From positions 13,434-77,433 of the forward strand of contig JAGWAD010000022.1 in assembly GCA_018302105.1 (NCBI GenBank): a stretch of 64,000 nt of DNA. The letters run 5' to 3'. Positions 26,702 to 61,797 of the stretch are shown here, piece after piece. Position 1 is the stretch's first letter, and each line of letters opens with the position of its first letter. Made by a program: the position numbers and the translations under genes. The notes beneath the pieces were generated by a model, which made no database searches, was not told the origin of the DNA, and worked only from the letters and a program-made list of their open reading frames with translations. Source of the DNA: Candidatus Woesearchaeota archaeon. Lineage in GTDB: Archaea > Nanobdellota > Nanobdellia > SCGC-AAA011-G17 > GW2011-AR18.

Positions 26702-27823
26702 TTATCTATATACTGATTTTTTACTTCTTACAACTTTTACATCATAAGCAACTTGTTTTAAGTCTCCAACACTGTCAAATTCTATTTTACTAGTTGATAC
26801 ACCATTTATTGAAGTTTGTTTTAAAGCTTCTTTTATTCCAGCTTTATTTGTACTTCCAGTGTTCTTAATTGCTTCAGTCATTACTCTTAATGCATCATAT
26901 GCTAATGGTGCAGCAATTGCAACTTCCAAATTTTCAAAGCCTTTCACGTTCTTTATTTTAGCCTTAAAATCTTCAGGTGAATTTACGCGAGCAACTAAAT
27001 ATATTGTATCTTCTGCATAATCACTTTTAAAAAATTCTTCACCATCAAAAGCATCTCCACCTATAACTGGAATATTTAAGTTCATTTCTTTTATCTGTTT
27101 TAAAGCAGATACCCCGCCAGCAGGATAAACTGGTAAATATAAAGCTTCTGCTCCGCTTTCTTTAACTTTAGTTATCAAAGTTTTGAAATCCTTATCAGTT
27201 TGTAAAACTCCATCTTCATATATTACTTCTCCACCCAATTGCCTGAATGTTGGAGCAAATACATTTTTTATTCCTTCTCCCCAATCATTCTTTACATAAA
27301 CTATAGCTATTTTTTTCTTGCCTAAAGTGTTATATATAAAATTAGCAGCTTCTTTTCCTTGGAAGCTATCTGAAGGATAAACTCTAAAAATATATTCTCC
27401 TTCTGTTAATTTAGGTGCTGAAGCAGCAACTATTACTACTGGTACTCCGTTGCTTTCTGCTATTGGCAATGCTGGACCGCCAGAAGCAGAACAAATTGGA
27501 CCAATTACTCCAGTAACTTGATCAACATTAATTAATTTTTGAATAGCACTCACACTATCAGCTGAACATTTGTCATCTTCAGCAACTAACTCTATTTTTC
27601 TTCCGCCAATTCCACCTTGTGAATTAATTTCATTAGCAGCAAGTGTTGCACCAGCTAGCGAGTTTTGACCCCAGGAAGCAGCTTCTCCAGTTAAAGGCAA
27701 TAATAATCCTAATTTAATAGGTTCACTGCTCTGTGAATTTGAGTTCCCATTATTCTGTGAGCTGCAAGCCCCAATAAGAACAATTAATATAAATAATGCT
27801 AAAAATATTTTAACTTTTTGCAT
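26702..27823 (-). CDS. livK: branched-chain amino acid ABC transporter substrate-binding lipoprotein (LivK/LivJ type)
   Basis: Signal peptide with lipobox LIGAC. Periplasmic binding protein fold (PLTGEAASWGQ...). Confidence 0.8.
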   Translation of the reverse strand: MQKVKIFLALFILIVLIGACSSQNNGNSNSQSSEPIKLGLLLPLTGEAASWGQNSLAGATLAANEINSQGGIGGRKIELVAEDDKCSADSVSAIQKLINVDQVTGVIGPICSASGGPALPIAESNGVPVVIVAASAPKLTEGEYIFRVYPSDSFQGKEAANFIYNTLGKKKIAIVYVKNDWGEGIKNVFAPTFRQLGGEVIYEDGVLQTDKDFKTLITKVKESGAEALYLPVYPAGGVSALKQIKEMNLNIPVIGGDAFDGEEFFKSDYAEDTIYLVARVNSPEDFKAKIKNVKGFENLEVAIAAPLAYDALRVMTEAIKNTGSTNKAGIKEALKQTSINGVSTSKIEFDSVGDLKQVAYDVKVVRSKKSVYR

Positions 27824-33169: not shown

Positions 33170-33336
33170 AAGAGAACTTTGCAAAACAACATTTCTAATA
33201 ATTCTTTAGGCTTAAAACATCAAAATTATTGAGTTCCACAGGAAAAAATCACCAAAAAACTTAATTATTCAAACTTCTCTAAAAAAATAATTTTAACTAA
33301 TAATTTTGAAACAAAATATTTAAAAAGATATGAATA

Positions 33337-33660
33337 TTGCAGATTTATATGCAGGAAATAACAGATTCTACATTTGAAAAAGAAGTTCTTAATTCAGATA
33401 AACCTGTAGTTTTAGATGCATGGGCTCCTTGGTGCGCCCCTTGTTTGGGTATGGCTCCAATATTCGAAGAATTAAGCAAAGAAATGAAAAATGTAAAATT
33501 TGTTAAGATGAATGTTGATGAAAATCAGGAAACACCAAGTAAATATTTTGTCCAGAGCATTCCAACATTTTTAATTTTCAAAAATGGAAAATTAATTGCT
33601 AATATAGTTGGAGGAAGACCAAAATCTGTTTTTAAATCTGAGATTGAGAAAGCATTATAA
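33337..33660 (+). CDS. trxA: thioredoxin
   Basis: WAPWCAPC active site (CAPC variant of CGPC) and cis-Pro IPTFLIF. 107 aa. Confidence 0.85.
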   Translation: MQIYMQEITDSTFEKEVLNSDKPVVLDAWAPWCAPCLGMAPIFEELSKEMKNVKFVKMNVDENQETPSKYFVQSIPTFLIFKNGKLIANIVGGRPKSVFKSEIEKAL

Positions 33661-33719
33661 TTATTCTTAAGTAGTGAAAATAGTTAATTTTATAAATCTA
33701 ATTGAAATAATTTAAATTC

Positions 33720-35282
33720 ATGGATTTAAGAAATATTACTAAGGCTTTTGTAGGTTATGGATTATTGACAGCATTTGGAACTTATTTTATATTAGATAAA
33801 TTCGATAATCCAAAAAAAAGCGTTAATAAAGTTGAAATAGCAGAGGAAGTAGAAAGGAAAAAAGAAGCAGCAAAAGAAGATTATTTTGAATTTCTAAGAA
33901 CTAGACAAGATGGTGCAGATGTTTTCAAATATAAAATTGAAGGAGAAAAAAATTTAGACGAAATTGCAATTAAGTTTAATCAGGTAGATTCTTTAGCATT
34001 TGGAGACAAATATGCTGAAGTAAGTTCAACTAATCTGGTGCATTCTGATGGAAAAAGTTACATTGAAGACTTAGATGATAAAAATTCTATCTATTTACTA
34101 GCAAGAAAAAGTGAGTCTGTAATTGTTACTAAAAAATTAAATAGTGAAAACGGGCAATTTTTTGCAATTTTGACAAATAATGATGATTTAGAAGAAAGAC
34201 ATATAAAAAATATTAAAATAGCTTATAAATTATTAAGATCAAAAAAGATAGATCCATGTAATCTTTATGTTGTATCTGGTCCAAATCAAAATACAGAATG
34301 TAAATTAGATTTTCCAGTTAATCAAGCTCCAGCAAAACAAGGAATTTTAAATGCTATTCAGTCTATAAAAGAGAGAGCAACATCTAAAGATTCTTTGCTT
34401 GTCTATATAACTGGTCATGGTTCTAAAGGAGAAATTAAATTTGAAAATGAAAATGGTTTGTCTTATGCGAAATTTAGGAGATTAATTGAAGAGCTAAATT
34501 TAAATCTAGTTATTGCTTTTTCAGATCAATGTTATGGTGGAGGAATTGTAAAAGAATTTAAAAAAAGTGAACATCGAACAATTTCTTTCTCCCCAACATA
34601 TACAGAAGACCTTACACAATGTCACTTATTTACTCCAAATTTGTGGGAGATTCTTGGCCATAACCTATTTGATATTAACAAAGATAGTAAAACATCTGTA
34701 AAAGAAGCATTTATTTTAGCATATGGAATATATAAGACAGCTATACGTAATCCAAATATTATAAGTAAACCGCCTTCTAGAGAAAGGCTTTCTGAATTAT
34801 CTAAAAATTTAATTAGTAGAGAAACTACAGTTAATTTATTGGAAGATTCAGAGATTGAATATGATGGGTTAATTGCAACAACTGGAAATATTGAAGATAC
34901 TACAATTGATGGAAAAATTTTAGGTAATAAAAATAAAAATTCATTAGTATTGGAATTAGATTATAACAACTATGAAACTAATGTTTTAAATTCAAAATTA
35001 CCAGTTATTGTGGATATTTATACAAAATGGTGCACTTTCTGTAAAGTATTAGGAAAGGATCTGCCTAAAATTGCTTCTAAATATGATAGCAAAGTAAAAT
35101 TTACAAAAATTGATTATGAATCTGAACGTGCAGCAGAAATAATAAAGAGTCATACCAAGGAAGTTGTAAATGGTTTTCCTAGGATATTATTTGTAAAAGA
35201 TAAGCAAATAATTTATGCCCAAGATGGATATAGTGAAAGTGCTGATCTGGAAGCAAAAATAAAAGAGGAGTTTGGATTATAA
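33720..35282 (+). CDS. membrane-anchored caspase-like (clan CD, C14/C13-type) peptidase domain fused to a C-terminal thioredoxin-fold domain
   Basis: N-terminal TM helix. YITGHGSKGE (His) and FSDQCYGGG (Cys) about 40 residues apart, as in caspase/metacaspase dyads. C-terminal YTKWCTFCKVLG (CxxC) with cis-Pro GFPRILF. Confidence 0.55.
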   Translation: MDLRNITKAFVGYGLLTAFGTYFILDKFDNPKKSVNKVEIAEEVERKKEAAKEDYFEFLRTRQDGADVFKYKIEGEKNLDEIAIKFNQVDSLAFGDKYAEVSSTNLVHSDGKSYIEDLDDKNSIYLLARKSESVIVTKKLNSENGQFFAILTNNDDLEERHIKNIKIAYKLLRSKKIDPCNLYVVSGPNQNTECKLDFPVNQAPAKQGILNAIQSIKERATSKDSLLVYITGHGSKGEIKFENENGLSYAKFRRLIEELNLNLVIAFSDQCYGGGIVKEFKKSEHRTISFSPTYTEDLTQCHLFTPNLWEILGHNLFDINKDSKTSVKEAFILAYGIYKTAIRNPNIISKPPSRERLSELSKNLISRETTVNLLEDSEIEYDGLIATTGNIEDTTIDGKILGNKNKNSLVLELDYNNYETNVLNSKLPVIVDIYTKWCTFCKVLGKDLPKIASKYDSKVKFTKIDYESERAAEIIKSHTKEVVNGFPRILFVKDKQIIYAQDGYSESADLEAKIKEEFGL

Positions 35283-35283
35283 T

Positions 35284-35922
35284 ATGAAAATAAGAAATAT
35301 TTTAGGGGGTGTTGTAATTGGGGGTTTATCAATAGCAATTGGAACTTACTCAATATTTGATGTATTTGACAATCCAAAACCCAAGAATTTACCAAATCAA
35401 ACTGAAATAACTAAACAGGTTCCTGATAAAACTGAAGAAACAAAATTCAAATCTTTTAAAAAGCAAGATAAAACTGAAGATCAGTATTTGTTTGGCGTAC
35501 TAATCAATACTAATGATTTAGATTTAAAAAATAAAGATAATGTAAGAACAGTTTATAGATTTTTAAGATCAAGAAATATTAATCCATGTTATTTATATGT
35601 AGCATCAGGACCAAATCAAAATATAGAATGTGCTATTTATTATGTAAATCAGGATTCAAGTTTAGAAGGAATATCAAAAGCATTAGACCAAATTAAATTA
35701 AGAATATATCCTTCAGATACAATTTTAGTTTATTTAACAAGCAATAGTAAAGAAGATATAAAATTATCAGACTCAAGTGTTGTTAGTTACAATAAGCTCA
35801 ATGAAATGGTTATTGGAACAGGAATAAAGAATATAGAAATTCTTGCAGGTGATGTAAATCAGCAGACCTTAGAAAGGATAGTGGAAAAACCATATAAAAA
35901 CAAGATGCAAAACAGTAAATAA
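35284..35922 (+). CDS. catalytically degenerate paralogue of the caspase-like protein, with TM anchor and no thioredoxin domain
   Basis: Aligns with the upstream gene (VYRFLRSRNINPCYLYVASGPNQNIEC versus AYKLLRSKKIDPCNLYVVSGPNQNTEC). The His position reads LTSNSKED and the Cys position reads LAGDVNQQ. Start taken at the ATG just after the upstream stop. Confidence 0.5.
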   Translation: MKIRNILGGVVIGGLSIAIGTYSIFDVFDNPKPKNLPNQTEITKQVPDKTEETKFKSFKKQDKTEDQYLFGVLINTNDLDLKNKDNVRTVYRFLRSRNINPCYLYVASGPNQNIECAIYYVNQDSSLEGISKALDQIKLRIYPSDTILVYLTSNSKEDIKLSDSSVVSYNKLNEMVIGTGIKNIEILAGDVNQQTLERIVEKPYKNKMQNSK

Positions 35923-35952: not shown

Positions 35953-36729
35953 ATGTACTTAGTCACAATTGGAGAAATCTTCCTTAAAGGAGAAAACAGG
36001 ATTACTTTTGAAAGAAAGTTAATGAGAAATATGAGATTTGCTTTAGATCTAAAACCAGATGAAATACAAAGACATAGAAACAGGTATTTAATTTTGAATG
36101 ATGAAAATATAAACCAATTACAAACAGTTTTTGGAGTCAATAGTTATTCTAAAACTATAAAATGCAATCCAGATGAAATAAAAGAAACAGCATTGTCTTT
36201 AATAAAAAATGAAAAAACCTTTCGGGTATCTTCAAAAACAATACAGTTAATAAATAAAAATTCAATAGAATTAAATAATGAAATTGGGGAATATATTATT
36301 AAAAATAAGGATATAAAAGTTAATTTAGAAAATCCAGAAATAAATATAAGAATTGAAGAAATTTCAGGAAAAATTTATCTCTATACTGAAATAATAAAAG
36401 GTCCTGGTGGCCTGCCAGTTGGTTGTTCAGGTTATGTTTACATTCGCGTTAAAGATGAATTAAAAGCTTCTGTTGCTGCATATCTGATGATGAAACGTGG
36501 ATGTAAAATTTACTTATCTAGTGACCTTCCATTAATGCATAAGTTTGCAAAATCATTTAAACTTAAAGTAAGGGAAGAGTATGATAATGATTTTATTGTT
36601 ACAGATGAAACTTTTGAAAATATAGATTTAAAAGAAAACCAAAAATTTATTTTAAAACCTTTAATTGGTTACTCTGAAGAAGAAATAAATAAAATTTATA
36701 ATAAAATAGTAAACATTAATTCTGAATAA
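35953..36729 (+). CDS. THUMP-domain protein (ThiI N-terminal-like, lacks the PP-loop)
   Basis: MYLVTIGEIFLKGENRITFERKLMRN matches the ThiI/THUMP ferredoxin-like N-terminus. No SGGxDS motif and only 258 aa. Confidence 0.5.
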   Translation: MYLVTIGEIFLKGENRITFERKLMRNMRFALDLKPDEIQRHRNRYLILNDENINQLQTVFGVNSYSKTIKCNPDEIKETALSLIKNEKTFRVSSKTIQLINKNSIELNNEIGEYIIKNKDIKVNLENPEINIRIEEISGKIYLYTEIIKGPGGLPVGCSGYVYIRVKDELKASVAAYLMMKRGCKIYLSSDLPLMHKFAKSFKLKVREEYDNDFIVTDETFENIDLKENQKFILKPLIGYSEEEINKIYNKIVNINSE

Positions 36730-36787: not shown

Positions 36788-37264
36788 ATGAAAAAAATAA
36801 TATTTACAGTTTTAGTTTTTGGCATTTTATTTTTAGCTGCCTGCGGCCAGACACAGAATACAGGAAGCACTTCAGGTTCTGGATTTTCAGGAAATTTGGC
36901 ACAGGCTATAAGTTCTGGAAAAAGTATGAAATGTACTATGGATACACAGGGTGTAAAATTAGATACTTATATTAAAGGTAAAAAAGCCAGGTCTGAATCT
37001 TTAATCCAAGGAATGAAATCAATAACAATTTTGGATGAAAATAATTGTGCTTGGGTATGGAGTGAAAGTTCAACACAGGGTACAAAAATATGCACAGATG
37101 CAAAAACAACAGGAAATAACCAACAGGTTTCAGGTTCTAATATTGATCCAAATATCAAAGTAAGTTGTAATGAAATGATGTTGGAAGATAGTTTATTTAT
37201 GCCGCCTATTAATATGAAGTTCACTGATTTAAACCAGATGATGAAAAATGTGCCAGGAGCATAG
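36788..37264 (+). CDS. secreted lipoprotein, hypothetical
   Basis: Signal peptide with lipobox LAAC. A GGAGGG Shine-Dalgarno sequence lies 6 nt upstream. Confidence 0.5.
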   Translation: MKKIIFTVLVFGILFLAACGQTQNTGSTSGSGFSGNLAQAISSGKSMKCTMDTQGVKLDTYIKGKKARSESLIQGMKSITILDENNCAWVWSESSTQGTKICTDAKTTGNNQQVSGSNIDPNIKVSCNEMMLEDSLFMPPINMKFTDLNQMMKNVPGA

Positions 37265-37280: not shown

Positions 37281-37880
37281 TTATTTTATATATTCTACAT
37301 CAGGTAGAAATTCAAATTGTTTATCTCCAGTTAAAAAGCTATATCCTTCAATTTGTGATATTGTATAACCTAAAACATCAATATAAGAAAATTCTCTTTT
37401 ATTATTTTTCAGTTTGAATTGTGCAGCTAAAAAAATATGTTCATCTTTGATTGTTAATGCAAATGGTGCAAATTTATCAAATTTCTCTCCAAACTTTTTT
37501 AACAAGCAATAATAAACTTCGAGCAGATTTCATTTGATAGAAAAGAAAGGAAATTTAGTAAAACCTGCATAATTTTCATTGCCGTATGCCATTCCTATAA
37601 TAACATAACTATCTAAAAAATAAATTGTTTCTGCGTTTTTCACGTTCTGCCTCCTCTTTTCTTATTTCATCTTTAAATTTTTGCATATCTATCTTAGGCA
37701 TTCACTTTAGTGTTCCAAATATTTCTTTTAACGGGTTGTTGACATGCTTAACGAATGTTACATCAATTTTATCTCCAGGTTTAATATTCTCTTTATTTGC
37801 AATATTTTTAGGTAAAACAATTCCAAATGAATTACCACATAATTATACATGTCTAATTAATATAAACATTTTTTGTATAA
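37281..37880 (-). pseudogene. decayed toxin-antitoxin-like pair: AbrB/MazE-type antitoxin remnant and a downstream ORF, each with an in-frame stop
   Basis: Minus-strand translation of 37690-37870 gives MFILIRHV*LCGNSFGIVLPKNIANKENIKPGDKIDVTF... (AbrB swapped-hairpin consensus interrupted by TAA). The 37281-37505 ORF continues upstream through an in-frame TGA (...FFSIK*NLLEVYYCLLKKFGEKF...). Confidence 0.3.
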
Positions 37881-38088: not shown

Positions 38089-38312
38089 TTTTTAATCACC
38101 TCAAGAAATATAAATAATCTAAAGTTAAAAAGCATTTACCAAAAAATTTAGAAATATTTTCAAAATCTATAAAAATTAACATTTAAAATATAAAATTATT
38201 TGATTAATAATAGAAAAATCAGAATATGTCTGTGAAAAATTGCATTAATAAATAAAAATTAAATAAAAATACTTATAAAGAATTGAAATAATCTATTTTA
38301 GGGTGTAAGTAT

Positions 38313-42041: not shown

Positions 42042-43040
42042 TTATGATTGGTTTTTAATTTTACTGATAAAAATTGCAGGTTCAGCAGGAGTTTCAGGAG
42101 ATAAATTTTCACTTTCTAAAAATGTATGAATATAAGGCATTAAAATTAATTCTATTTTCATTTCACCGCCATATTGTTTTATTTCTTCATCTAATTCTTC
42201 TACTGATTTGGCATTTTTATTTCTATTAACAATTAATTCAATTTCCCCTATACTTTGTTTATTGCTATTACCAATTGATTTTCTTACAATTCCGATAGGC
42301 AAAGGTCTGCCAAGTAAATCCGCCAAAATTTCTCCTGAGCTTTTAGTAAGATATACTGTCCCACCAGAACTTCCTTCAAAAATAAGATTAGAAATATTTA
42401 TTGTTAGAGATGGATCACTTTTATTTATGTCCCAACTATAAGGTATATTATCTTCTAATCCAATCACTTTAGTATTATATAATATTACATTTTGGTGTGA
42501 TTTTCTTTTAGGAGAGTGAACTATTATTAAATGTATTCTATCTTTTGGATTTTCTAGAATATCTCTTACATACTTATCAAAATAAGTGCCATTCATTATA
42601 GGCAACCTCATTGCAAGATCCTGTTTCTTTCCTCTAAATAAAGTTATGCCTAAAGCAGTCTTTTCTTTTATTTTTTCCAGCATTTCTTCATTTAATTTAT
42701 AACCATTTAGAAAATATGCTCTATTCTTTTCAATTTTAAAATGGTCAGTGCTTAAATAATAATTATAATTATTTTTTGTGCCAGCATAAAACCCGCTTGC
42801 AGAACTGCCATGAAAATCTTCTATTCCAAAAGAGGTATGGTCTTCTATTAAATCTCTGTAAGAAAAAGACATCGCAGGCCTTGAAAGCGCTTGTTTAATT
42901 GAATCACCTAAAAAATCACATCCTTCTACATGATCCTGCTCAATTATTTCCTTGATTGTGGCACATCCTGCAATTGTAGGTAATACTGAACTCCCAATAA
43001 TAAGGCTGCCAGCCATTATTAAATTTTTTAAATTTATCAT
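42042..43040 (-). CDS. lipoprotein with possible trypsin-like serine peptidase fold
   Basis: Lipobox IAGC. GSSGGTVY resembles the S1 GDSGG serine motif. His/Asp assignment is uncertain. Confidence 0.4.
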   Translation of the reverse strand: MINLKNLIMAGSLIIGSSVLPTIAGCATIKEIIEQDHVEGCDFLGDSIKQALSRPAMSFSYRDLIEDHTSFGIEDFHGSSASGFYAGTKNNYNYYLSTDHFKIEKNRAYFLNGYKLNEEMLEKIKEKTALGITLFRGKKQDLAMRLPIMNGTYFDKYVRDILENPKDRIHLIIVHSPKRKSHQNVILYNTKVIGLEDNIPYSWDINKSDPSLTINISNLIFEGSSGGTVYLTKSSGEILADLLGRPLPIGIVRKSIGNSNKQSIGEIELIVNRNKNAKSVEELDEEIKQYGGEMKIELILMPYIHTFLESENLSPETPAEPAIFISKIKNQS

Positions 43041-59725: not shown

Positions 59726-60289
59726 ATGGTAAAAATAGGACAACAAATTTCAGATTTTGAATTAGAAGCATTTCATAATAATGAGATTAAGAAAGTGAAA
59801 TTATCAAATTTTAAAGGAAAATGGCTTGTATTAGCTTTTTATCCTGCAGATTTTACATTTATTTGCCCAACAGAATTAGTGGAATTAGCAGATTTATATG
59901 ATGAATTTAAAAAAGCAGGTGCAGAAGTATTAAGTGTAAGTACAGACACAGTTTTTGTCCATAAAGCCTGGCATGATAATTCACCATCAATTAAAAAGAT
60001 TAAATATCCAATGTTGGCAGATCCTGCTGGTAAATTATGCAAAGAATTTGGAACATATATTGAAGAAGAAGGCTTGTCTTTAAGAGGTTCGTTCATTATA
60101 GATCCTGATGGAATATTAAAAGCATATGAAATTCATGACAATAGCATTGGAAGAAGTGCAGAAGAAATTTTAAGAAAGTTACATGCAGCTATATATGTAA
60201 GAGAACATAAAGGAGAAGTATGTCCTGCTAGCTGGAAACCTGGAAAACAGACATTAAAACCAGGATTAGATTTAGTTGGAAAAATATGA
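59726..60289 (+). CDS. 2-Cys peroxiredoxin (AhpC/TSA family)
   Basis: FTFICPTE peroxidatic Cys motif and resolving VCPASW. 187 aa. Confidence 0.9.
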   Translation: MVKIGQQISDFELEAFHNNEIKKVKLSNFKGKWLVLAFYPADFTFICPTELVELADLYDEFKKAGAEVLSVSTDTVFVHKAWHDNSPSIKKIKYPMLADPAGKLCKEFGTYIEEEGLSLRGSFIIDPDGILKAYEIHDNSIGRSAEEILRKLHAAIYVREHKGEVCPASWKPGKQTLKPGLDLVGKI

Positions 60290-61206: not shown

Positions 61207-61797
61207 ATGGCATACGAAGCAAAGAATTTTGATTATCTATTGGGTTTAACAGGTTTTTCAGACAGGTTATTAAAAAATCATTTTACTCTATACCAGGGTT
61301 ATGTAATAAATACAAATAAATTGATTGAATTGATGATGTCAATGGTAAAAGAGAATAAAGCAAATACTCCTGAATTTGCAGAATTAAAAAGAAGATTTGG
61401 ATGGGAATTTAATGGAATGCGTTTGCATGAACTGTATTTTGGAAATATGAATAAAAAGAAAACAGAATTAAAAAAAGATTCAAAATTATACAAAAAAATG
61501 GTTGAAATTTTCGGTTCTGGAGAAGAATGTGAAAAAGTATTTAAAGCAACAGGCTCAATGCGTGGAATTGGTTGGGTTGTTATGTATTACGATAAAGAAG
61601 CAGATAAACTGTTTAATACATGGATTAATGAACATGATGTTGGCCATTTAGCAGGATTAACACCATTACTAATAATGGATGTTTTTGAACATGCTTACAT
61701 GGTTGATTATGATACTAAAAAAGCAGATTATATTGAAGCATTTATAAAATCTATAGATTGGGATGTTGTAAATAAAAGATTTGAGGATGCTTTATAA
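61207..61797 (+). CDS. sod: Fe/Mn superoxide dismutase
   Basis: HFTLYQGYV ... DVFEHAYMVDY (the DVWEHAYY motif), with the four metal ligands positioned as expected. Confidence 0.9.
   Translation: MAYEAKNFDYLLGLTGFSDRLLKNHFTLYQGYVINTNKLIELMMSMVKENKANTPEFAELKRRFGWEFNGMRLHELYFGNMNKKKTELKKDSKLYKKMVEIFGSGEECEKVFKATGSMRGIGWVVMYYDKEADKLFNTWINEHDVGHLAGLTPLLIMDVFEHAYMVDYDTKKADYIEAFIKSIDWDVVNKRFEDAL

Follow-up and report, generated by a model that had tools for sequence, protein, structure and literature searches.

A clan CD cysteine peptidase fused to a thioredoxin domain, with a truncated paralogue, in a Candidatus Woesearchaeota genome

Locus organisation

We analysed a 64,000-nucleotide (nt) stretch of DNA from a Candidatus Woesearchaeota archaeon (contig JAGWAD010000022.1, positions 13,434 to 77,433), referred to here as the window, which had a GC content of about 26%. 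Three open reading frames (ORFs), all on the + strand, encode a stand-alone thioredoxin (gene 1), a fusion of a clan CD cysteine peptidase with a thioredoxin domain (gene 2) and a shorter, catalytically dead paralogue of the fusion (gene 3). The conserved unit is the protease-thioredoxin fusion; its thioredoxin neighbour is possibly linked to it and the dead paralogue is a lineage-specific addition. An ORF check bore out the original prediction that three genes lie on one strand. Translation confirmed its description of gene 2 as a 520-residue protein with a His...Cys dyad and a C-terminal WCTFC motif with a cis-proline, and showed a hydrophobic N-terminal segment where a transmembrane anchor had been proposed. 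This protein and the NCBI entry 'thioredoxin fold domain-containing protein [Candidatus Woesearchaeota archaeon]' have identical sequences. The genes and the features of the fusion protein were as follows (aa, amino acids; positions are those of the window).

33349..33660, +: stand-alone thioredoxin, 103 aa, with the motif WCAPC (Pfam PF00085, TIGR01068, gene callers)
33720..35282, +: fusion gene, 520 aa, with an anchor, a small alpha/beta domain, a clan CD (C13-like) peptidase domain that includes an EF-hand-type loop, a helical linker and a thioredoxin domain
33744..33794, +: hydrophobic N-terminal signal-anchor, aa 9-25, AFVGYGLLTAFGTYFIL (translation)
33873..34115, +: N-terminal, predicted extracytoplasmic alpha/beta domain, aa 52-132, conserved in four of the five Woesearchaeota fusions
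34146..34754, +: clan CD cysteine peptidase domain, aa 143-345, nearest to family C13 (legumain/GPI8)
34197..34202, +: Arg160-His161, S1-pocket region, aligned with 'YRH' of legumain/GPI8 (profile alignment with 5h0i and 7w72_K)
34257..34301, +: Cys180...Cys194 pair, a candidate structural disulfide, invariant in the Woesearchaeota-subfamily alignment A3
34416..34418, +: catalytic His233 (ITGHGS), invariant in alignments A2 and A4
34524..34532, +: Asp269-Gln-Cys271 with the catalytic Cys271 (FSDQCYGG); the cysteine is invariant and 136 of the 159 domains keep D269
34620..34622, +: Cys301, another conserved cysteine, opening the loop that corresponds to the c341 (non-prime substrate) loop of legumain
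34671..34706, +: EF-hand-type loop DINKDSKTSVKE (D318, N320, D322, S326, E329), from family conservation and the structural model
34755..34931, +: helical/beta linker, aa 346-404, with the conserved motif TTGxIxDxTIDG (alignments A1 and A3)
34932..35279, +: C-terminal thioredoxin domain, aa 405-520
35284..35922, +: truncated dead paralogue, 212 aa, with an anchor and the first half of the peptidase fold (BLASTP, hmmalign, gene callers)

The gene callers started the thioredoxin gene at ATG 33349, giving the 103-aa product, and not at TTG 33337. They started gene 3 at ATG 35284, one base past the gene 2 stop codon (TAA) and with GAGGAG ahead of it; genes 2 and 3 therefore abut and are probably translationally coupled. 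An overlap between the two, as had been proposed, depends on a TTG at 35272 and was not upheld.

The peptidase domain

The middle domain of the fusion protein belongs to clan CD (caspase-hemoglobinase alpha/beta fold) and is nearest to family C13, with metacaspase-like traits, notably Asp269. Comparison with solved structures gave match figures of 20.3 for human legumain (4aw9, 191 residues aligned), 19.7 for OaAEP1, 19.1 for metacaspase-4, 18.7 for metacaspase-9, 18.6 for the glycosylphosphatidylinositol (GPI) transamidase PIGK and about 14-16 for caspases and a paracaspase; the figure for thioredoxins was about 17. Foldseek matched PIGK (1e-7) and legumain (2.4e-7), and matched thioredoxins with template-modelling scores of 0.81-0.89. 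The predicted template-modelling score (pTM) of the fusion model was 0.66. A profile made from family members lacking a thioredoxin domain, compared with the PDB, matched metacaspase-4 (2.7e-14) and OaAEP1 (5.2e-11), as well as PIGK and legumains. The profile and structure matches were far beyond chance.

The clan CD assignment follows from the alignment of His233 and Cys271, Arg160-His161 and Cys301 with residues of known enzymes. His233 and Cys271 are 38 residues apart and, in the profile alignment, fell on the catalytic His and Cys of OaAEP1 (TDHG/EACESG), metacaspase-4 and PIGK (TGHGG/DTCQG). The caspase-like middle domain proposed from the sequence was thus recovered by structure and profile comparison, with its dyad on the catalytic residues. 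In the same type of alignment Cys301 fell on the cysteine of 'SSWC' in OaAEP1, which we take to be the gatekeeper Cys247. The S1 pocket with which legumain recognises Asn or Asp is formed by an Arg-His pair after strand 1, a Glu after the catalytic Cys and an Asp on the c341 side. As Tyr272 and not Glu follows the catalytic Cys here, Asn specificity cannot be assumed. Metacaspases and orthocaspases have an acidic S1 residue at position -2 from the catalytic Cys, a feature that goes with basic P1 specificity, and Asp269-x-Cys271 aligned with SDSC of AtMC4, so that the acidic residue at -2 is present. The gatekeeper residue of OaAEP1 is named, without its sequence context, in PMC7489914.

Database models placed the protein at the border of known families. 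It scored 22.4 bits against the Pfam Peptidase_C13 model PF01650 (threshold 22.8), in a match covering part of the model. The threshold was passed by the orthologues P0003-5 (23.2-24.7 bits) and by the relatives P0008, P0009 and P0011 (35-45 bits). No match of the window protein to the C14 model PF00656 was found at E <= 0.1. Since P0011 (25.4 bits) and P0014 (28.9 bits) pass that model's threshold of 21.4, the family straddles C13 and C14.

The protein differs from each of the enzymes that it resembles. It shares only 13-17% identity with legumains, or asparaginyl endopeptidases (AEPs; C13; human 4aw9, OaAEP1 5h0i), and has Tyr in place of their Glu after the catalytic Cys. It is also archaeal and membrane-anchored. 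The legumain stabilization and activity modulation (LSAM) prodomain is absent; the protein has instead an EF-hand-type loop and, after the peptidase domain, the helical linker and the thioredoxin domain. PIGK/GPI8 (7w72_K, 7wld_K) has a C-terminal anchor and no thioredoxin domain, whereas the anchor of the window fusion is N-terminal; the window protein lacks the partner subunits of PIGK and any evidence of GPI-type substrates. Unlike type II metacaspases (AtMC4, 6w8r/6w8s; AtMC9, 8a53), it has no Pfam C14 match, no p10 region and no metacaspase linker architecture, and its predicted Ca2+ site, the EF-hand-type loop, is in a different place.

The thioredoxin domain, predicted calcium loop and linker

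Pfam Thioredoxin matched gene 2 at aa 411-516 (1e-15). The active-site motif WCTFC occupies aa 437-441 (nt 35028-35042) and the cis-proline is in the FP at aa 486-487 (nt 35175-35180). With the structure matches, these features support the C-terminal thioredoxin fold that had been predicted. The domain scored 52 bits against TIGR01068, below the cutoff of 96.8, and should thus be considered a thioredoxin-fold domain rather than a TrxA orthologue. It is classical thioredoxin-like, unlike ResA, CcmG and TlpA: the NCBIfam models of the extracytoplasmic oxidoreductases DsbE, ResA and TlpA scored far below their cutoffs (for DsbE, 18.5 against 359 bits and 14.6 against 123 bits). Neither the ResA/CcmG/TlpA proteins nor calredoxin, which combines EF-hands with a thioredoxin domain (5e37), are fused to a protease.

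In the model, the EF-hand-type loop lies between helices 301-313 and 327-343 in a helix-loop-helix arrangement, and the relative P0011 had a weak EF-hand_5 match. The loop is a predicted Ca2+ site, its binding judged from the residue pattern and the model. A hidden Markov model (HMM) of the linker matched only Woesearchaeota fusions. The linker occupies the position of the legumain activation peptide and LSAM prodomain. The Cys180/Cys194 pair was specific to the Woesearchaeota subfamily, was kept in the paralogue and was rare elsewhere in the family.

Recurrence of the fusion

A word-indexed homologue search with the full fusion protein recovered only the protein itself and one variant, and the middle domain alone recovered nothing. 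The same type of search with a 42-sequence profile gave five matches only. The family was exposed by an exhaustive HMMER search of representatives with the middle domain, which found 278 cluster representatives at E <= 1e-3. Architectures were counted over 151 family representatives and residues over 159 peptidase domains.

By HMMs, a thioredoxin domain was adjacent to the peptidase domain in 43 of the 151 representatives, following it in 42 and preceding it in one. Fused members were found in Woesearchaeota, Micrarchaeota, Peregrinibacteria and other bacteria. Four full-length fusions of the Woesearchaeota type (P0003-P0006; 31-37% identity) have the complete set of parts: anchor or lipobox, peptidase domain, linker and thioredoxin domain. 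All 43 fused thioredoxin domains have a CxxC and most show the cis-proline. The catalytic His233 and Cys271 are essentially invariant; the S1-pocket residues were less so (R at the Arg160 position in 101 domains and H at the His161 position in 128). The EF-hand-type pattern D318-x-N320-x-D322-x3-S326-x2-E329 was widely kept (D in 126, N/D in 128, D/N in 125 and E in 121). Cys301 was present in all 43 thioredoxin-fused domains versus 55% of the unfused ones. The protease-thioredoxin pair is a conserved evolutionary module.

Other architectures were seen among the relatives. The metagenome protein P0007 (595 aa) has two C13-like domains in one chain, the first dead (His->Asn, Cys->His) and the second active, together with a thioredoxin domain. 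Several long relatives (a Peregrinibacteria protein at L007 6521-9388, P0017, P0022 and P0092) extend the C13-like-thioredoxin core with C-terminal ankyrin/HEAT arrays. Some of these carry lipoprotein signals and others no signal, and their repeats matched the PADLOC models PDC-M72A and HEAT-ARM.

Family members are annotated at source as 'hypothetical', 'thioredoxin fold domain-containing' or 'HEAT repeat domain-containing'. A literature search on prokaryotic C13/thioredoxin fusions found no paper describing the fusion; the nearest item was a Nodularia metacaspase genomically co-localised with a DsbA-like gene (PMC4933709). The suggestion that the arrangement is undescribed holds in that the fusion is unannotated and no paper on it was found, but the fusion is not unique to this genome.

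The truncated paralogue

BLASTP aligned gene 3 with gene 2 at 40% identity over 115 aa (E 7e-26), and the N-terminal anchor was 44% identical. In the hmmalign alignment the Arg-His pair is replaced by KN and the GHG of the catalytic histidine by SNS, and the sequence is missing or unalignable after about aa 176. The chain ends soon after the position of the Cys-bearing strand and lacks the EF-hand loop, the linker and the thioredoxin domain. The segment IEILAGDVN may be a remnant of VIAFSDQCY, which would make the change Cys271->Asn; otherwise the cysteine is absent. BLASTP and the profile alignment thus agree with the first description of gene 3 as a shorter paralogue that has lost the catalytic residues and the thioredoxin domain.

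No counterpart of gene 3 was found in any of the five related Woesearchaeota loci examined. The motif 'GTYxIxDxFDNPK' after the anchor occurs only in the two window proteins, pointing to a duplication within this lineage. Gene 3 has 62% nucleotide identity to the fusion gene and its ORF is intact. Under random substitution it stayed free of stop codons in 0.9% of trials with 60 changes and in 0.05% with 100 changes. Because the frame is open beyond this neutral expectation, we favour retention of gene 3 as a non-catalytic membrane protein over a decaying pseudogene. Bacterial pseudo-orthocaspases with replaced His and Cys have been described (PMC6426788). Like these, and like cFLIP, the partner of caspase-8, gene 3 is a dead paralogue beside an active clan CD enzyme; unlike them, it is cut to about half the fold and is confined to one lineage.

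In two related loci the slot of the paralogue is occupied by a conserved small Cys-rich ORF of 114-121 aa, convergent with the fusion gene (L006 8703-9047, - strand; L016 6946-7311, - strand). We rejected this ORF as a substrate of the fusion, because it lacks a signal peptide and the 64-kb window contains no homologue of it.

The stand-alone thioredoxin

Gene 1 matched Pfam PF00085 Thioredoxin (E 7.8e-31) and passed the NCBIfam equivalog cutoff for TIGR01068 (112.1 against 96.8 bits), in keeping with the thioredoxin with a CAPC active site that had been noted. Its product was 75% identical to the thioredoxin at the L006 locus. No signal peptide or anchor was found in the protein, which is thus presumably cytoplasmic, in contrast to the predicted outward orientation of the fusion. 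A thioredoxin gene precedes the fusion by 41-59 nt in four of the five Woesearchaeota lineages (the window, L005, L006 and L016/L017), the exception being L004. The adjacency sits in a conserved block running from the thioredoxin gene through the fusion to a ThiI gene, and a GINS gene was also upstream in the window and L006. The original prediction of a three-gene module is accordingly sustained in part: the fusion is conserved and the adjacent thioredoxin gene recurs, but the paralogue was in no related locus.

The gene 1 product is the ordinary cytoplasmic thioredoxin of this small genome. Its adjacency to the fusion is conserved, but a putative functional link between the two would depend on an electron carrier in the membrane, and the window encodes none. 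No CcdA/DsbD-type carrier was found among window ORFs of at least 150 aa: the Pfam-scanned candidates with multiple transmembrane segments were M50, VIT1, M48 and YdjM proteins, and the remainder resembled, by eye, ABC permeases and an MFS-type transporter, none of them CcdA-like. A peroxiredoxin (AhpC/TSA, 1.7e-40; 59726-60289) and an Fe/Mn superoxide dismutase (61207-61797) are encoded close together in the window and are likely to be the usual companions of the gene 1 thioredoxin in protection against oxidative stress.

Topology and rate of evolution

The fusion protein most likely faces outward. All Woesearchaeota orthologues start with a hydrophobic N-terminal anchor, clearer than that of the window protein, and P0003 carries a lipobox (VSSC). 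Lipoprotein or Sec signals were likewise seen in the Peregrinibacteria protein and in many of the bacterial relatives. The predicted orientation rests on these signals together with the Cys180/Cys194 pair and with evolution faster than that of the cytoplasmic neighbours: identity to L006 was 33% for the fusion versus 70% for GINS, 75% for the thioredoxin and 66% for ThiI. The window anchor (aa 9-25) had a hand-estimated Kyte-Doolittle value of about 1.6 over 17 residues.

Many metagenome contigs, including at least one with a groundwater label, carry the same locus in nearly clonal form. Across 11 near-clonal contigs we counted about nine single-nucleotide polymorphism (SNP) sites in 8.6 kb. 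Five of these were in the fusion gene and all five were non-synonymous; none was in GINS, the thioredoxin or ThiI. Relative to L008-L014, the fusion SNPs at 33743, 33768, 34219, 34702 and 35220 encode K8N, T17A, I167T, K328R and Q501K, in varied combinations. The cluster suggests diversifying or relaxed selection on a surface protein and was counted among the signs of an outward orientation, though the numbers are small. Hypermutation of the type caused by diversity-generating retroelements was rejected as its source, since the five changes are scattered and not biased to adenines.

Putative promoters and neighbouring genes

Three short elements were recognised ahead of the genes.

33319..33326, +: TATA-like box TTTAAAAA, some 27 nt ahead of the thioredoxin ATG (by eye)
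33688..33697, +: TATA-like box TTTTATAAAT, some 28 nt ahead of the fusion ATG (by eye)
35265..35270, +: GAGGAG, a putative Shine-Dalgarno-like element, 14 nt ahead of the gene 3 ATG, within the end of the fusion gene

From archaeal promoter geometry, the TATA-like boxes suggest separate leaderless transcripts for the thioredoxin and fusion genes.

The flanking genes are housekeeping genes, with a GINS subunit gene upstream and a short ThiI/THUMP-like gene downstream. The latter (35953-36729, 258 aa) encodes ferredoxin-like and THUMP domains, but its PP-loop domain breaks off after about 30 residues. TIGR00342 matched it over model positions 2-200 of 373. As the short form (255-264 aa) is kept in L005, L006 and L016, it is a conserved truncated THUMP protein and not an artefact. 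Strain variants differed from the window by a 25-bp deletion at 38093-38117 (L011) and a 1-bp insertion at 37429 (L010 and L015), both of which fall within or close to small ORFs on the downstream side of the locus. Lipobox signals (LAAC, IGAC, IAGC) were found on predicted secreted proteins at 36788-37264, 26702-27823 and 42042-43040, so the organism seems to use lipoprotein-type anchoring widely. The 158-aa lipoprotein among them was 38% identical to its L006 counterpart and is thus also fast-evolving.

Function of the fusion protein

We would give about an even chance to the interpretation that gene 2 encodes an outward-facing, membrane-anchored, legumain-like peptidase or transpeptidase that is gated by redox state and Ca2+ through its tethered thioredoxin domain, with the gene 3 product as a partner. 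Outside the cell, the catalytic thiol of Cys271 would be prone to oxidation, as would Cys301, which is strictly co-conserved with the fusion and would lie beside the substrate groove. The tethered CxxC would reduce these thiols, or an inhibitory disulfide between Cys271 and Cys301, and redox state and Ca2+ would thereby switch proteolysis. The product of gene 3, a lineage-specific and probably co-transcribed copy whose frame selection has kept open, would most likely serve the active enzyme as a non-catalytic partner or regulator in the membrane.

Several observations weigh against redox gating of a surface enzyme. The window anchor is only moderately hydrophobic and was not flagged by a 19-residue scan at a threshold of 1.6. 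Some fused relatives lack any signal (for example, the N-termini of P0092, P0103 and P0121), implying that the module operates in the cytoplasm as well, a setting in which no protection against an oxidising exterior is required. The CxxC dipeptide varies (TF, HN, PA, YP, NP, GP and others), leaving the redox potential and the direction of the reaction uncertain. Shared ancestry may account in part for the co-occurrence of Cys301 and thioredoxin, should the fused members form one clade. The ORFs with multiple transmembrane segments that were examined in the 64-kb window yielded no electron donor for an extracytoplasmic thioredoxin. For the proposed partner, a dN/dS (ratio of non-synonymous to synonymous substitution rates) of about 0.68, with saturation, indicates weak constraint on gene 3.

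The thioredoxin domain could instead serve the substrates, reducing their disulfides ahead of cutting or forming and isomerising disulfides in the processed or ligated peptides. The reductase GILT aids lysosomal proteases, including legumain, and AEP and protein disulfide isomerase (PDI) act in plant cyclotide maturation. A role on substrates would suit the conservation of CxxC and cis-proline in the fused members, the spread of CxxC dipeptides, which resembles that of PDI/Dsb-type oxidoreductases, and the presence among the nearest solved folds of the peptide ligases OaAEP1 and VdiPAL1 and of GPI transamidase. It leaves the strict co-conservation of Cys301 with the fusion unexplained, however, and no linked candidate substrate gene was found, the Cys-rich ORF of L006 and L016 lacking a signal and being absent from the window. 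We therefore regard it as unlikely, though deserving some weight. Distinctly less probable is a linker and thioredoxin domain acting as an autoinhibitory cap or intramolecular chaperone, moved or released on activation. Both lie C-terminal to the peptidase, exactly at the place of the legumain prodomain, the linker motif is conserved and the pTM of the model suggests some defined packing of the domains. A purely structural cap would nevertheless need no strictly conserved CxxC and cis-proline; the thioredoxin domain precedes the active peptidase domain in P0073 and P0007, and there is no similarity to LSAM.

The remaining explanations concern the locus as a whole. It is doubtful that only the fusion gene is functional, the thioredoxin gene being kept by synteny and gene 3 being a decaying remnant of tandem duplication. 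Such a history would account for a paralogue that is in no related locus, has lost half of the fold and all catalytic residues and shows weak constraint, as well as for a thioredoxin gene that has its own TATA-like box and is missing beside the L004 fusion. Yet a 212-codon ORF intact at 38% nucleotide divergence and 26% GC is very unlikely under neutrality, and neither the anchor, the Cys180/Cys194 pair nor the coupled start has been lost from gene 3. Moreover, the unrelated P0007 is a separate case of a dead domain (His->Asn) combined with an active one, there within one chain, and the thioredoxin adjacency holds in four of five lineages though the fusion has fallen to about 33% identity. Prokaryotic caspase-like domains often act in defence or programmed cell death, and the original prediction raised such a role for this locus, with the caspase-like protein as effector. 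Apart from a weak match to the NCBIfam model 'caspase, EACC1-associated type' (20 bits against a cutoff of 140) and the HEAT/ankyrin arrays of some relatives, which match PADLOC repeat models, little pointed that way. None of the three window proteins matched PADLOC-DB at E <= 0.01, the neighbours are housekeeping genes (GINS, ThiI-like, thioredoxin) in conserved synteny with no sensor or NTPase partners, and the predicted outward orientation is ill-suited to an intracellular suicide effector. We thus consider a defence module very improbable.

Significance

Clan CD, which includes the caspases, the legumains, GPI transamidase and the peptide ligases used in biotechnology, is well studied in eukaryotes, and its prokaryotic relatives are mostly uncharacterised. 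The conserved covalent pairing of protease and thioredoxin suggests a built-in redox switch for an extracellular cysteine protease, with which Cys301 and the calcium loop fit. The family is also a possible source of new legumain-type ligases or proteases with controllable activity. A more speculative proposal, which we hold to be improbable though not negligible, is that the fusions form a previously undescribed, redox- and Ca2+-gated family of legumain-like surface proteases or transpeptidases of ultra-small DPANN archaea and bacteria of the Candidate Phyla Radiation (CPR) that remodel cell- or host-surface proteins in episymbiosis, the tethered thioredoxin domain opening an inhibitory disulfide that involves Cys271 and Cys301. 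If so, the fast evolution of the fusion and the gain of a dead membrane partner in this lineage would reflect that interaction. For the biology of DPANN and CPR organisms, the finding flags a fast-evolving and probable surface enzyme that has been annotated merely as 'thioredoxin fold' or 'hypothetical'.

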